64,000 nt of DNA from an uncultured Verrucomicrobiae bacterium (GCA_963802965.1 CAWDKS010000003.1:202819-266818), one strand, 5' to 3'. Positions 31,499 through 35,128 are shown, counted from the first letter of the stretch. The notes: generated by a model from the letters alone, not told the origin. A program made the numbers and translations.

Positions 31499-34400
31499 TT
31501 GGCGCAAAACGCGGCAGCGTCGGCGGCAGGCCCGTCCTCCGTAGCACTGCGGAGGGTGGACAGTTTGTTCGCTGACATCTCGCAAGCTCCCGCCGTGCAG
31601 TCCCTCGTGCGGCGGCTGGAGAATGGCGGAGTGCTGTCCGGCGCCGGTGTTTGCCCGGCGGCGCAGCCGTTGCTTGCGGTTCTGCTTCAAAGGATTTTTC
31701 CGGGCCGGCCAGTCATCGTCGTCACAGACGGCCTCAAAACACAGGAAAGTTTCCAACAGGACATCGAAACGTGGCTGCAAGTTGAGTCTAAAGTCCAACT
31801 TGCCGCGCCGGAGCGAAACGAAGGCGGGAGTCCCAAGTCCAAAGTTGGCGGAGTTTCATCTTCGCCATTTTTTTATCCCGCTTGGGAAGTTCTTCCGCAC
31901 GAAGGCAAACTACCGCACGCCGACACCATCAGCGACCGGTTGCAGACCCTGGTCGCACTTTCTGAAAAATCGGCAATCGGCAATCGGCAATCGGCAATGG
32001 TTGTGACCAGCGTCACCGCCCTGCTCCAGAAGACGTTTCCACCCGGCGAAATTCAAAAGCGCACGCGCAAGCTGCAACGCGGTGACAAAATAAATCCGTT
32101 GGACTTGATTGAATGGTTCGAAGAGCAAGGCTACGAACCGGAGGCCCAAGTCACGCAAAAAGGCGAAATCGCCCTGCGCGGCGGCATCCTGGATGTCTGG
32201 CCGCTGACCAGTCCGTGGCCGGTGCGGCTGGAATTTTTTGGCGACGAACTCGAATCGCTCCGCCATTTTGAGCCGCTCACGCAGATTTCGCGCGGGGAAA
32301 TTTCCAGTGTCGTTTTGCCGCCCGCCGGTGAGCTGGGTATTTTGAAACGGAGCGCGGACAGCTTGTCCACGGGTTCGGCGGTGAAGTTTGCCACGCTTTT
32401 GGATTATCTGCCGGGCGAAGCGATCTTTCTGCTCTGCGAACCGGAACAAATGGCCGCGCGCGCCGATGAATACGCACAGCAAATTCCCAAGGGCGATCCG
32501 TTTTTCATTTCGTGGCAGGATTTTCTGGTGGAATTGAACCGGCGCGGCTTCACGTCGGTCGAATTGAGCGATGTCGAAGTTGGAGTTCAAGCTTTAGCTT
32601 GTTCGCCGGACAGGCCGAAGCCTGAACTCCAACCAGCCGTGCCGGAGGCCGGCGCTCCGCTTTTTACCTCGATCGACGCATTTCGTCCGCTGGCCGAACG
32701 CGCGCCCGAACTGCAAATTGCCGAGGCGCAACGACGCGAATTCTTCAATCAACTCCATCGCTGGCTGCGGCAAGGTTACGCCGTCCACGTTTTTTGCAAC
32801 AACGACGGCGAACGCCAGCGGTTCGAGGAAATTTGGGCAGAAACAAGTCCGCAGTCCACAGTCCACAGCCCACAGTCAGACAATCGCGACAGGCTGAAGG
32901 CTGTGGACTCGCGACTGTGGACTGGAGTTGGCTCGCTCGCCCGCGGTTTCCTCTGTGACGCAGCCAGGCTCGTCGTCGTCACCGACGCGGAAATTTTTGG
33001 CCGCTACAAAATCCAGCGTCCGCGCCAGTTGAAATCGCCACACGCGCTCGCCACCCGCTCCGCGCTCGACATTGATTTCACCGAACTGGAGGAAGGCGAC
33101 CTTGTTGTCCACATTCAATACGGCATCGGAAAATTTCTCGGCCTGAAAAATTTGCCGACGATTTCCGCTTCAACGGTTTCCGAAACCGAATGTCTGGTGA
33201 TTGAGTTCGCGCCCGCCCATCCCGGCGACGAACCGCCAAAACTTTACGTTCCGGTGACCGAGGCGCATCTCGTCGGCAAATACGTCGGCGCTGGTGGCCG
33301 CGGCGCAAGCCGCCCGACGCTCAACACGTTCGGCGGCACGCGCTGGCGCAAGGCGAAGGAACAGGCCGAACGCGCCGTGCGCGACGTCGCCGCCGAACTG
33401 TTGCAAATCCAGGCCGTGCGCGAATCCCAGCCCGGCCACGCGTTTCCGGCGGACGTTCCGTGGCAGCGCGAATTTGAAAGCGCCTTCATTTTTGAGGAAA
33501 CGCCCGATCAATGGCGCGCGATTCAGGAAACCAAATCCGACATGGAAAAGCCCAAACCGATGGACCGTTTGATCTGCGGCGACGTCGGCTTTGGCAAAAC
33601 CGAGGTCGCCATCCGCGCCGCGTTCAAGGCGGTGATGGACGGCAAACAAATCGCCGTGCTGGTGCCGACGACCGTGCTGGCGCAACAGCATTTCAACGTG
33701 TTCCGCGAGCGCATGGCCGATTACCCGGTTCGCATCGAATTGCTTTCGCGCTTTCGCACCCGCCGCCAGCAACAGCGCGTCGTGAAGGATCTGGCCAGCG
33801 GCGGGGTGGACATCGTCATCGGCACCCACCGGCTGATTCAAAACGACATCGTTTTCAAAGACCTCGGCCTCGTCGTGATTGACGAGGAGCAGCGGTTCGG
33901 CGTGTTGCACAAGGAAAAGTTCAAGCGCCTGCGCACGCTGGTGGACGTGCTGACGTTGAGCGCCACGCCGATTCCGCGCACGCTTTACCTCGCGCTCACC
34001 GGCGCGCGCGACATGAGCACCATCCAGACGCCGCCGCACGACCGCCTGCCGGTCGAGACCATCGTCACGCAATTCGACGAGCGCGTCATCCGCGATGCCA
34101 TCCAGCGCGAACTGAATCGCGGCGGACAGGTTTTCTTTCTGCACAACCGCGTGATGACGATTCAGGCGGTGGCCGGCCGGTTGAAACAGCTTTTGCCGCA
34201 CGCGCGCATCGTCATCGGCCACGGCCAGATGGATTCGGACGAACTGGAAGAGGTCATGACAAAATTTGTCAACGGCGGGGCGGACGTTTTGCTTTCCACG
34301 ACCATCATCGAGAGCGGCCTCGATATTCCGAACGCGAACACCATCATCATTGACCGCGCCGACCGGTTTGGGTTGAGCGATTTGTATCAGCTACGCGGGC

Positions 34401-35128
34401 GCGTCGGACGTTACAAACATCAGGCTTACGCGTATCTGCTGTTGCCGCGCCACGTGAGCCTGCTGACCGACGTGCGCAAACGCATTAGCGCCATCCGGCA
34501 ATACTCCACGCTGGGCAGCGGATTCAAAATCGCCATGCGCGACCTCGAAATTCGCGGCGCGGGAAATCTGCTCGGCGCGGAACAGAGCGGCCACATCACC
34601 GCTGTCGGGTTCGAGCTTTACTGCCAGTTGCTCAAGCAAAGCGTCGGCGCGTTGAAAGGCGAAAAAGTAAAACCGCGTGTGGAAGTCAGTGTGAAACTGG
34701 ATTTCTTGGGGCAGTCAGCAGTCAGTAGTCAGCAGTCAGTAGCAACAGCCGGCGAACGATCTGCCACTGACTACGAACCACTGACTACTAACTTGCCTCA
34801 CAACTACATCACCGAACCGCGGCACCGCATCGAAATCTACCGCAAACTGGCGCAAGCCAGTGAAAAATCCGCGCTGGAAAGTTTGCAGAAGGAATTGCGC
34901 GACCGTTTTGGTCCGCTGCCACCGCCGGTGGAATTGCTGCTGCTCGTGGCCGAACTCAAAATTCTTGCCAGTGAAAAATCCGTGACCGCCATCGAGGTGA
35001 AGGACGACAAATTGATGCTCACGCGCCACGGCGATTTCATCACGCTCGGCGGCAAATTCCCGCGCCTGACAAAAAAGGAAGCGAAAGCGCGGTTGAAGGA
35101 AATCAAGCGGCTGCTGCTGGCGATTTGA
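31499..35128 (+). CDS. mfd: transcription-repair coupling factor Mfd
   Basis: CarD-like [17 protein letters not shown], Walker [22 protein letters not shown] box [10 protein letters not shown], and helicase C and TRG regions. The TTG start at 31499 is uncertain. The gene carries at least five repeat-derived in-frame segments. Confidence 0.92.
31801..31831. repeat. 31-nt motif TGCCGCGCCGGAGCGAAACGAAGGCGGGAGT, copy 3, inside mfd
   Basis: Matches the two rRNA-spacer copies over about 28 nt and is translated as [10 protein letters not shown]. Confidence 0.8.
31968..31995. repeat. perfect tandem heptamer (AATCGGC)x4 inside mfd
   Basis: aatcggc aatcggc aatcggc aatcggc followed by aatgg, translated as SAIGNRQSA. 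Confidence 0.9.
32579..32633. repeat. palindromic element, TTGGAGTTCA family, inside mfd
   Basis: The arms are GTTGGAGTTCAAGCT (32579-32593) and AGCCTGAACTCCAAC (32619-32633), with 1 mismatch. Confidence 0.8.
32846..32923. repeat. inverted repeat with AGTCCAC heptamer arms inside mfd (78 nt)
   Basis: agtccgc agtccac agtccac agcccac agtcaga (32846-32880) is complementary to ggctgtggactcgcgactgtggact (32899-32923). It is translated as [26 protein letters not shown]. Confidence 0.85.
34711..34792. repeat. inverted repeat with GTCAG[CT]A heptamer arms inside mfd
   Basis: gcagtcagcagtcagtagtcagcagtcagtagc (34711-34743) is complementary to gccactgactacgaaccactgactactaac (34763-34792). It is translated as [28 protein letters not shown]. 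Confidence 0.85.

Follow-up and report, generated by a model that had tools for sequence, protein, structure and literature searches.

A stretch of 64,000 nucleotides (nt) from an uncultured soil bacterium of the Verrucomicrobiae (GCA_963802965.1 CAWDKS010000003.1:202819-266818), hereafter the window, was analyzed with respect to its mfd gene, which encodes the transcription-repair coupling factor and harbors several repeat-derived segments in its reading frame. The window has a base composition of 58.8% G+C. The mfd open reading frame (ORF) extends from 31499 to 35128 on the plus strand and is unbroken over 1209 codons, counted from the first TTG, with all helicase motifs present. The product contains the Pfam domains UvrB_inter, CarD_TRCF_RID, DEAD, Helicase_C and TRCF. 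These correspond to the parts by which an Mfd is recognized, namely the UvrB-interaction domain D2 (PF17757, amino acids (aa) 191-277, E = 2.7e-18), the domain interacting with RNA polymerase (RNAP), or RID (PF02559, aa 530-596), and the superfamily 2 translocase core with D7 (PF00270, PF00271 and PF03461). The UvrB-homology region can be aligned to residues 72-219 of E. coli Mfd. Solved structures of mycobacterial, E. coli and Thermus Mfd were matched with E values from 1e-218 to 1e-165, the top match being Mfd of M. smegmatis (6ac6, 1e-218). Judged by its translation, the ORF encodes an intact Mfd. A public protein of 1177 aa (P0001, located on a 1.14-Mb contig) is 100% identical to the window Mfd over its whole length and is the only protein with more than 85% identity, the next relatives reaching about 82-85%. 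Residues 12-21 of the window Mfd (31532-31561) form an N-terminal stretch without counterpart in any relative, and given the length of the public protein the true start may lie downstream of the TTG.

Five repeat-derived segments had been proposed for mfd in an earlier reading of the sequence alone (the sequence-only reading). All five were found where it had placed them, its peptide readings agree with the translation of the ORF, and none of the segments introduces a stop codon or a frame shift. All lie on the plus strand. Site 1 is a composite insert at 31776-31866 (aa ~94-122), its extent being set against relatives with an empty site. Direct heptamers, AGTCTAA AGTCCAA at 31785-31798 and AGTCCCA AGTCCAA AGT at 31829-31845, surround a 31-nt GC-rich hairpin motif (31800-31831) that encodes AAPERNEGG, and the second heptamer stretch is followed by the remnant of another array (..TTTCATCTTCGCC). 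The sequence-only reading had equated this segment with the 31-nt spacer motif; the motif is present, but the real insert is larger and the motif is nested between AGTCYAA direct heptamers. Site 2 (31968-31998) is a perfect array, (AATCGGC) x4.4 with 100% identity, encoding SAIGNRQSA. In a DNA folding test, segments 1 and 2 did not behave as hairpins. Site 3 (32579-32633) is a mini-element with the terminal inverted repeats GTTGGAGTTCAAGCTTTAGCTTG ... CCTGAACTCCAAC. Its 27-nt arms are 81% complementary (DNA folding z = -3.9), and each arm includes a small palindrome. Sites 4 and 5 are heptamer hairpins. Site 4 (32846-32923) consists of (CAGTCCA)n, an 18-nt spacer and (TGGACTG)n, that is (AGTCCAC) x4.6 with an inverted copy, the 30-nt arms being 80% complementary (z = -5.6). 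Site 5 (34711-34792) consists of (GTCAGCA/GTCAGTA)n, a spacer and (CTGACTA)n, or (GCAGTCA) x4.1 together with an inverted (CTGACTA) arm; its folding is weaker (z = -1.8). Together, the five filled sites add roughly 95 residues (about 8%) to the window Mfd. In composition the inserts are linker-like, with high shares of Ala, Ser, Pro, Gly and Glu.

The Mfd proteins were compared with those from 71 usable loci of 80 related genomes, giving 72 aligned sequences with the window and an alignment of 1667 columns for proteins of about 1200 residues. The related loci stem from uncultured Verrucomicrobiota of peat, soil and freshwater that carry the labels Limisphaerales, Pedosphaera or Verrucomicrobiia. 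The RID core and the entire D5/D6 motor (aa 602-1071) are fully occupied in this alignment except for three residues private to the window, an insertion GGR at aa 599-601 (33293-33301) inside an otherwise fully occupied stretch. Occupancy collapses at aa ~94-122, 155-167, 286-292, 361-385, 449-475 and 1072-1098. A seventh hot spot is the hairpin loop of the RID at aa 552-563 (33152-33187, plus strand), which is short and non-periodic in the window and holds a heptamer array of about four units in 19 relatives. Mfd of this lineage has seven such sites, of which five are filled in the window gene. In this alignment, which the sequence-only reading had called for, each of the five segments lies in a clade-specific indel hot spot between conserved Mfd blocks, and none is kept as protein even within the order, which speaks against ancestral sequence conserved across phyla. 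More than 100 database proteins show the same Mfd architecture.

The sites were also placed on solved structures of E. coli and mycobacterial Mfd by alignment of fragments. We take the domain boundaries, beyond those of D3, to be as given by Deaconescu et al. 2006. Site 1 is located in D1a, just N-terminal of the (D/A)WE(T/V)LP motif (AWEVLP in the window, D72-P77 in E. coli), and site 2 in a D1a loop between P99 and T100 of E. coli. Site 3 lies upstream of K357 in the linker between D1b and D3, site 4 in a loop of D3 (~I405-R423), and site 5 between R1007 and M1008 in the first loop of D7. All five sites are therefore positioned in loops or linkers and none in the RID core or the D5/D6 motor. 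The D3 domain is non-conserved and lineage-specific, with flexible linkers on either side (PMC7864632, PMC7385628). In an AlphaFold2 model built from a 60-sequence alignment, sites 2-5 were predicted as coil with a predicted local distance difference test score (pLDDT) below 50. This backs their location in loops weakly, because the model is poor overall (pLDDT 52).

The content of the hot spots differs strongly between relatives. Several relatives, among them deeper ones, possess short empty alleles at sites 1, 4 and 5 (for example ETWLG--SSPLF, GFSAE--EKLRIQIG and KLDFLR--DACNLPESYV), and separate branches have empty alleles of the same length. At site 1, empty alleles were found in the loci L003, L012, L020, L024-26, L040 and L048. 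In other relatives, the hairpins at the same sites are built from different units, such as CAGTCCA, AAGTCCA, GAGTCGA, GGGTCTG and CAGTCAG. The hot spots of relatives also hold palindromes with a GTAG head (GTAGGRCAGGCGTC..., peptide VGQASRLSP...RRDACPTL), which were found in Mfd of L002, L005, L012, L024, L045, L056 and L061, as well as members of the GTAGGAGCCGAGGTGACGAGGCTC family, with five copies in the window, and elements of the 'TLSPPGGERDGARG' type. One and the same family occupies differing mfd sites depending on the genome and occurs outside mfd as well, and unrelated families are found at one site in different genomes, including close relatives. The five segments had been called independent. 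This applies to the type of element, but segment 2 is an orthologous array common to most relatives and no private insertion.

At site 2 of L006, L009, L020 and L023 (e.g. L009:3445-3531), a 30-nt GC-rich insert (..GGCGCGACGAAGCGGAGCGCAGGCGG.., encoding ARRSGAEAA) interrupts a four-unit CTCAACC array at its exact centre without an extra unit and resembles the nested 31-nt motif of the window. Tiny GC-rich elements seem to target heptamer arrays. N gaps and frameshifts of metagenome-assembled genomes (MAGs) lie at or near hot spots (L038:6243-6294, L073:3957-4017, L074:3461-3556 and 3845-3917, L054:6131-6519), and the repeats appear to break or corrupt assemblies. The frameshifts at hot spots of L038, L054, L073 and L074 were considered as a sign of phase variation and rejected as such, as none of those closely examined amounts to ±7 nt. 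L038 has an N gap, and L074 has one additional nucleotide in the region of the site-2 array and is a MAG with several other frameshifts.

Site 2 was used to follow the evolution of a single array, as its loop has equal length in 43 genomes. Period-7 self-identity within the array is 0.67, whereas the identity between orthologous arrays is only 0.43; the third codon positions of the helicase core show an identity of 0.59 for the same genome pairs. In 26 genomes that could be brought into a common register, 24-28 of the 28 positions in the four units follow the consensus of that genome, yet the consensus itself exists in about 15 versions, among them TCGGCAA, TCAAAAC, TCAACCC, TCCGAAA, TCCGCAC, TCCAAAG, TCTCAAA, TCTGCCA and GCATCAC. 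Positions 1 and 2 of the unit are TC in 24 of these genomes, and position 6 is an A in 21. Neighbouring variants often differ by one substitution that is present in every unit, such as CTCAACC in L002 and CGCAACC in L004. A heptamer runs through all three codon phases in turn, so that this pattern is one of DNA and not of protein. The arrays diverge faster than synonymous sites and still stay periodic, which indicates that they evolve in concert. In the hairpin-type elements the arms always match each other, whichever unit is used, and sharing of a unit between mfd sites is 2-4 times commoner within one genome than between genomes.

Comparison of closely related proteins supports a rapid change of these sites. 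Within protein clusters of 90% identity, all internal length differences map to the hot spots. Four pairs were informative (P0064/P0156, P0074/P0125, P0074/P0126 and P0075/P0191). They are about 98-100% identical in most 40-residue windows and differ heavily at sites 1, 4 or 5; in one of them a peptide of the GAGTCGA/CCTCGAC type at site 4 is swapped for one of the GGGTCTG/CCCCAGA type. Since such near-identical proteins differ at the hot spots, the hot spots turn over far faster than the rest of mfd, either by local change or by recombination of short tracts. Pairs with 96% identity and different site-5 elements were also considered as recent replacements, but this was rejected because two striking cases proved mosaic, as seen in the DNA of L081 and L082. 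These two loci are 100% identical over ~3.4 kb and then only roughly 60-85% identical from just before site 5 to the end of mfd; beyond the gene identity is lower still and the downstream genes differ. This reflects either a recombination breakpoint beside the hot spot or a chimeric assembly.

The abundance of such arrays was determined with Tandem Repeats Finder (TRF) for the window and the 80 loci, 748 kb in total, counting arrays of at least 3 copies. Period 7 was represented by 205 arrays, compared to 9 for period 6 and 7 for period 8, and a second-order Markov control yielded 2 arrays of period 7. About a dozen of the 205 are located in the window, and the most distant relatives in the set (L060, L064, L066, L069-71 and L075) have none. 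The copy number has its mode at 4 (126 of 205 arrays), array lengths cluster at 25-33 nt, and 100 distinct canonical units were counted. Period-7 arrays are thus a specific trait of the lineage and far exceed chance. As periods of 3, 6 and 9 would be far less harmful in ORFs, the dominance of period 7 disfavours an origin by generic slippage.

The composition of the units is not random. TA is depleted (7% of units, 30% expected), whereas TC/GA is present in 90% of them (64% expected), and the sense strand of the inserts is poor in T (15.5%). Stop codons all begin with TA or TG, so that an array read in three phases must contain T only as TC. This filter accounts for part of the TC rule and leaves the fixed position of TC within the unit unaccounted for. 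TC/GA, being enriched and conserved in position, may be a recognition motif, but it is partly expected from the three-frame stop filter. When folded under RNA parameters, the inserts form better folds on their antisense than on their sense strand (124 versus 65 cases, p = 4e-8, mean difference 3.7 kcal/mol), whereas conserved coding controls show no strand bias. This bias was set aside as a sign of function, because stop avoidance imposes the composition, with a T-poor sense and a G+T-rich antisense strand.

The repeats are not restricted to mfd. Their absence from the remaining genome would have contradicted the sequence-only reading, but the motifs recur in rRNA spacers and in hypF of the window. 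The rRNA operon (1893-7410) carries two copies of the 31-nt GC motif in its 16S-23S spacer, both on the plus strand: one at 3785-3815, 3' of the first spacer tRNA gene (3678-3750), and one at 3972-4002, 3' of the second (3874-3947). Both are 90-94% identical to the mfd motif, and two hits were reached in 0 of 100 shuffles. The 23S-5S spacer harbors a GTCAGYA heptamer hairpin (7201-7285, plus strand) of the site-5 unit family with another loop. The spacers of the operon are therefore crowded with the same repeat classes as mfd. Directly 5' of the first spacer tRNA gene, the 16S-tRNA spacer contains a further heptamer hairpin (3597-3672) of (GATTTAC)n followed by (CGTAAAT/GTAAATC)n, with 27-nt arms that are 89% complementary.

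A second mosaic gene is hypF (54075-56531, plus strand, 818 aa), whose product has all HypF Pfam domains and five in-frame elements. These are (AAATCGC)x4 at 54973-55004, a GTAGGAGCCGACGTGAGGAGGCTC hairpin with perfect 24-nt arms at 55302-55373, the TTGGAGTTCA element at 55610-55677 (plus strand), (GTCACTC)x4 at 56180-56210, and (ATCGTAA)x4 at 56511-56540, which is the source of the C-terminal RERQIVNRKS and the stop codon. The TTGGAGTTCA element is a second copy of the site-3 element of mfd, with termini of ~23 nt common to both. Thus mfd is not unique, and the repeats, whose density in this gene the sequence-only reading had noted, are genome- and lineage-wide. Further arrays are found in intergenic DNA (58005-58100) and in other long ORFs of the flanks. 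A GTAG-headed family (TTTGTAGGAGCCGAGGTGACGAGGCTC ... GAGCCTCCTCACGTCGGCTCCTACA) that resembles repetitive extragenic palindromic (REP) sequences and their hairpin-forming doublets (REPINs) is present at 8813-8888, 18880-18913, 37346-37414, 55299-55379 and 62376-62452. One of these copies lies within hypF, and the other four lie near the ends of long ORFs and look intergenic. Another GTAG palindrome (GGTAGGGACGCCGCGCTGCGGCGTCC...) was found at 53176-53227. Located at 36279-36360, where the ORF 35125-36309 (its translation looks like RecF) has its 3' end, are two octamer arrays, (AGCGTTGA)x4.5 and (CGCTTTAA)x4.1, that are inverted relative to each other. The first of them codes for the terminal ALKRDLLKR and the TGA stop of this ORF and is a rare case of a period other than 7.

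The segments were compared to known systems of small repeats. The short tandemly repeated repetitive (STRR) sequences of cyanobacteria are reportedly dispersed tandem heptamer arrays, often with inverted runs that form hairpins, and are said to include nested elements of 20-30 nt and to be tolerated in structured RNA genes. The classic families of heterocystous species (STRR1-3) reportedly have few and fixed consensus units and lie in RNA genes and non-coding DNA. The window and its relatives share with STRRs the tandem heptanucleotide units dispersed in many copies (205 in 748 kb), but differ in the verrucomicrobial host, in 100 canonical units instead of a few fixed ones and in the location of most recorded arrays inside mfd, the gene for which every locus had been chosen. 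Rickettsia palindromic elements (RPEs) are said to be 100-150 bp long, to belong to a few fixed families and to add 20-50 residues, in frame and without stops, at surface positions of conserved functional proteins; they reportedly also occur in intergenic DNA. The window elements are likewise short palindromic repeats that are present in ORFs and intergenic DNA, in frame and free of stops. They come, however, from another phylum, are probably unrelated in sequence to RPE-1 to RPE-8, consist of ~30-nt heptamer arrays and hairpins with dozens of unit variants, and occupy several hypervariable sites within one gene.

RPEs are also mentioned in a survey of GTAG/CGTC REPs (Di Nocera, De Gregorio & Rocco 2013, PMC3733652). 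The REPs covered there lie within ORFs as singles or dimers and contribute 20-30 aa. Such intragenic repeats were most numerous in the verrucomicrobium Opitutus terrae, and many of them lie in replication and repair genes such as uvrA, uvrB, recBCD and polA; HypF of O. terrae is also listed, whereas Mfd is not on the list (PMC3733652). Some Mfd hot spots of relatives harbor comparable GTAG-headed palindromes (GTAGGRCAGGC..., GTAGGAGCCGAGG...). In contrast, the five segments of the window lack this head and start with GTTGGAG, AGTCC or GCAGTC, and GTAG heads in the window are confined to other elements (55302, 8816, 37349 and 62379). Neither heptamer arrays nor concerted evolution of units is described in that survey. 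REPINs are replicative inverted doublets that form a long hairpin and are non-autonomous, being mobilised by REP-associated tyrosine transposases (RAYTs) (Bertels & Rainey 2011, PMC3116915). Segment 3 is a short imperfect palindrome with an inverted doublet structure, and the repeats analyzed here share with REPINs the evolution within genomes and the coexistence of several families. REPINs, however, are almost exclusively extragenic and their arms are not tandem heptamers; a RAYT was not linked to the elements here, none having been searched for. Segment 3 and its hypF copy also have the terminal inverted repeats of miniature inverted-repeat transposable elements, but segment 3 has no flanking direct repeats and no insertion sequence was identified as its partner. 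A repeat unit that is not a multiple of three within a reading frame is shared with contingency loci, whereas arrays of about four units with invariant length in 43 genomes and no on/off alleles seen are unlike the changes in unit number by which those loci shift the frame. By sequence, the window segments belong neither to STRR1-3 nor to the GTAG REPs and probably not to the RPEs, though by analogy they appear to work like those systems. No literature was found that links heptanucleotide repeats with Verrucomicrobia, and no description was found of a coding heptamer-array class, its quantised size or its concerted evolution at orthologous sites. Palindromic repeats lying in frame within repair genes are known already, whereas coding heptamer arrays and their concerted evolution are new.

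Taken together, the data probably reflect small repeats that insert into, or arise in, permissive loops of Mfd, are filtered by the reading frame and then turn over rapidly. What was observed are the repeats, their distribution over hot spots, traces of a selective filter, concerted evolution and a rapid turnover, and from these we infer how insertion and homogenisation may proceed. Uncultured Limisphaerales/Pedosphaera-like Verrucomicrobiota would carry a population of very small structured repeats: ~30-nt heptamer arrays, single or as inverted pairs that form hairpins of 80-90 nt, REP/REPIN-like palindromes, a mini-element with terminal inverted repeats, and a 30-nt GC hairpin nested in arrays. 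Copies would enter genes or originate within them, and selection would purge those that shift the frame, bring a stop codon or lie in a folded core. Survivors would be in frame, poor in T (with T nearly always as TC) and confined to surface loops and inter-domain linkers of tolerant multidomain proteins. Homogenisation of the resident arrays would follow, for which slipped-strand mispairing with subsequent repair or gene conversion is the most plausible route; arrays could also be replaced, nested into or deleted, so that the hot spots would change much faster than the rest of mfd. Within the protein, the segments are most likely passengers that are neutral or almost so. The sequence-only reading had left a choice between strong tolerance of linker insertions and an active process that generates them, and both gain support. 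The sites lie in D1a loops, the D1b-D3 linker, a D3 loop and the first D7 loop; families swap at one site, arrays evolve in concert and near-identical proteins differ mainly at the hot spots.

Several points weigh against an insertion followed by filtering and turnover. Filled and empty alleles of site 1 show no target-site duplication, and no transposase, RAYT or other, is linked to the elements, although none was searched for and 64 kb of the genome were covered. Arrays at site 2 and in the RID loop are neither longer nor shorter than the non-periodic loops of relatives; for these two sites an in-situ origin or the decay of an old array fits as well as insertion. Some seemingly recent replacements are mosaic genes that result from recombination or chimeric assembly. 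Array density is 0.62 per kb in mfd and 0.036 per kb in the flanks, but this contrast is inflated, as the mfd sites are orthologous and inherited; similarly, 164 of 179 arrays of the 72 aligned sequences are in mfd, but every locus had been chosen for holding this gene. Finally, the relatives are all MAGs, and translation of the in-frame segments is predicted from the DNA.

The strongest competitor is a purely local origin, in which replication slippage generates arrays in situ in variable loops, nothing is mobile, and shared units are due to coincidence or local gene conversion. The equal length of arrays and non-periodic loops, the missing target-site duplication and the very high diversity of units (100 canonical units in 205 arrays) are all in keeping with it. 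Slippage should, however, favour periods of 3, 6 and 9 in ORFs, whereas arrays of period 7 are over 20 times as numerous as those of period 6 or of period 8, and the quantised array size of ~30 nt is seen in coding as well as non-coding DNA. Moreover, hairpin pairs and GTAG palindromes were met again at unrelated loci, as were the site-3 element and the 31-nt motif, and separate branches hold empty alleles of identical length. A local origin of all segments is therefore unlikely.

Still less probable is that the segments are adaptive parts of the protein, serving as flexible disordered linkers that tune the autoinhibition of Mfd or its contacts to UvrA or RNAP, or modifying repair toward mutator-like states. 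Di Nocera et al. speculated that REP-decorated repair proteins modify repair activity and favour mutator-like states, and repair genes are repeatedly decorated in other taxa (PMC3733652). The sites flank D3 and D7, which are mobile during activation of Mfd (PMC7385628), their composition is typical of disordered linkers, and the loops are filled throughout most of the clade. However, it is not the peptide that is conserved but the periodicity of the DNA and the complementarity of the arms, across all three codon phases. Several lineages retain empty alleles, and the same elements are present in hypF and other unrelated ORFs and the same DNA in rRNA spacers.

A function of the repeats at the level of DNA or RNA has very little to recommend it. 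They might affect stability or processing of the mRNA, pause or block transcription, serve as sites for a repeat-binding protein or act as phase-variation tracts that switch mfd off. The fixed TC in 24 of 26 genomes, with other positions varying, and the joint change of hairpin arms would suit such a role, as would motifs next to tRNA, 23S and 5S genes in rRNA spacers, where processing stems are expected; unit lengths not divisible by three are classic for contingency loci. The diversity of units is nevertheless too great for a sequence-specific binder, the TC rule and the poverty in T are largely predicted by stop avoidance in three frames, and segments 1 and 2 do not fold. A switch is contradicted by an array length fixed at about four units in 43 genomes without ±7-nt alleles, and the observed frameshifts trace to N gaps or to +1 errors in MAGs that are scaffolded or based on long reads. 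An artefact is scarcely credible, whether through an assembler that collapsed or inserted repeats or through chance read-through of a pseudogene. Hot spots do coincide with N gaps and frameshifts in some MAGs, and mosaics occur among cluster members. However, the ORF is intact with every helicase motif, in-frame inserts are present at the same sites in more than 70 independent assemblies, which stem from several studies and apparently from both short- and long-read data, and more than 100 database proteins share the architecture.

A bolder proposal, which we put forward tentatively and consider doubtful, is that Limisphaerales have an active process specific for period 7 by which repeats are written or homogenised within coding DNA. 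It would jointly explain arrays of ~30 nt (about four units), the TC-N-N-N-A-N skeleton, the uniformity of arrays, units that outpace synonymous sites and complementary arms. If true, peptide linkers in Mfd, HypF and other proteins would be continuously rewritten by a dedicated mechanism that is neither generic slippage nor ordinary transposition and that is possibly also behind the cyanobacterial STRRs.

With insertion, filtering by the reading frame and rapid turnover as the probable history, the mfd genes of this lineage offer a natural experiment, in which one conserved enzyme of 1200 residues presents seven permissive sites in more than 70 genomes in empty, filled, nested, replaced and decayed states. 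Heptamer-array repeats, which have been unexplained in cyanobacteria since 1990, are extended to a second phylum and to coding DNA, where the reading frame acts as a built-in reporter of array change. A mechanism is needed for three features, namely that period 7 dominates, that array size is fixed and that units change in concert. In practice, the hot spots yield N gaps, frameshifts and mosaics in assemblies and alignments of Verrucomicrobiota and inflate the apparent divergence of proteins. Few routes from non-coding DNA to new protein segments have been documented, and selfish repeats in frame are one of them.

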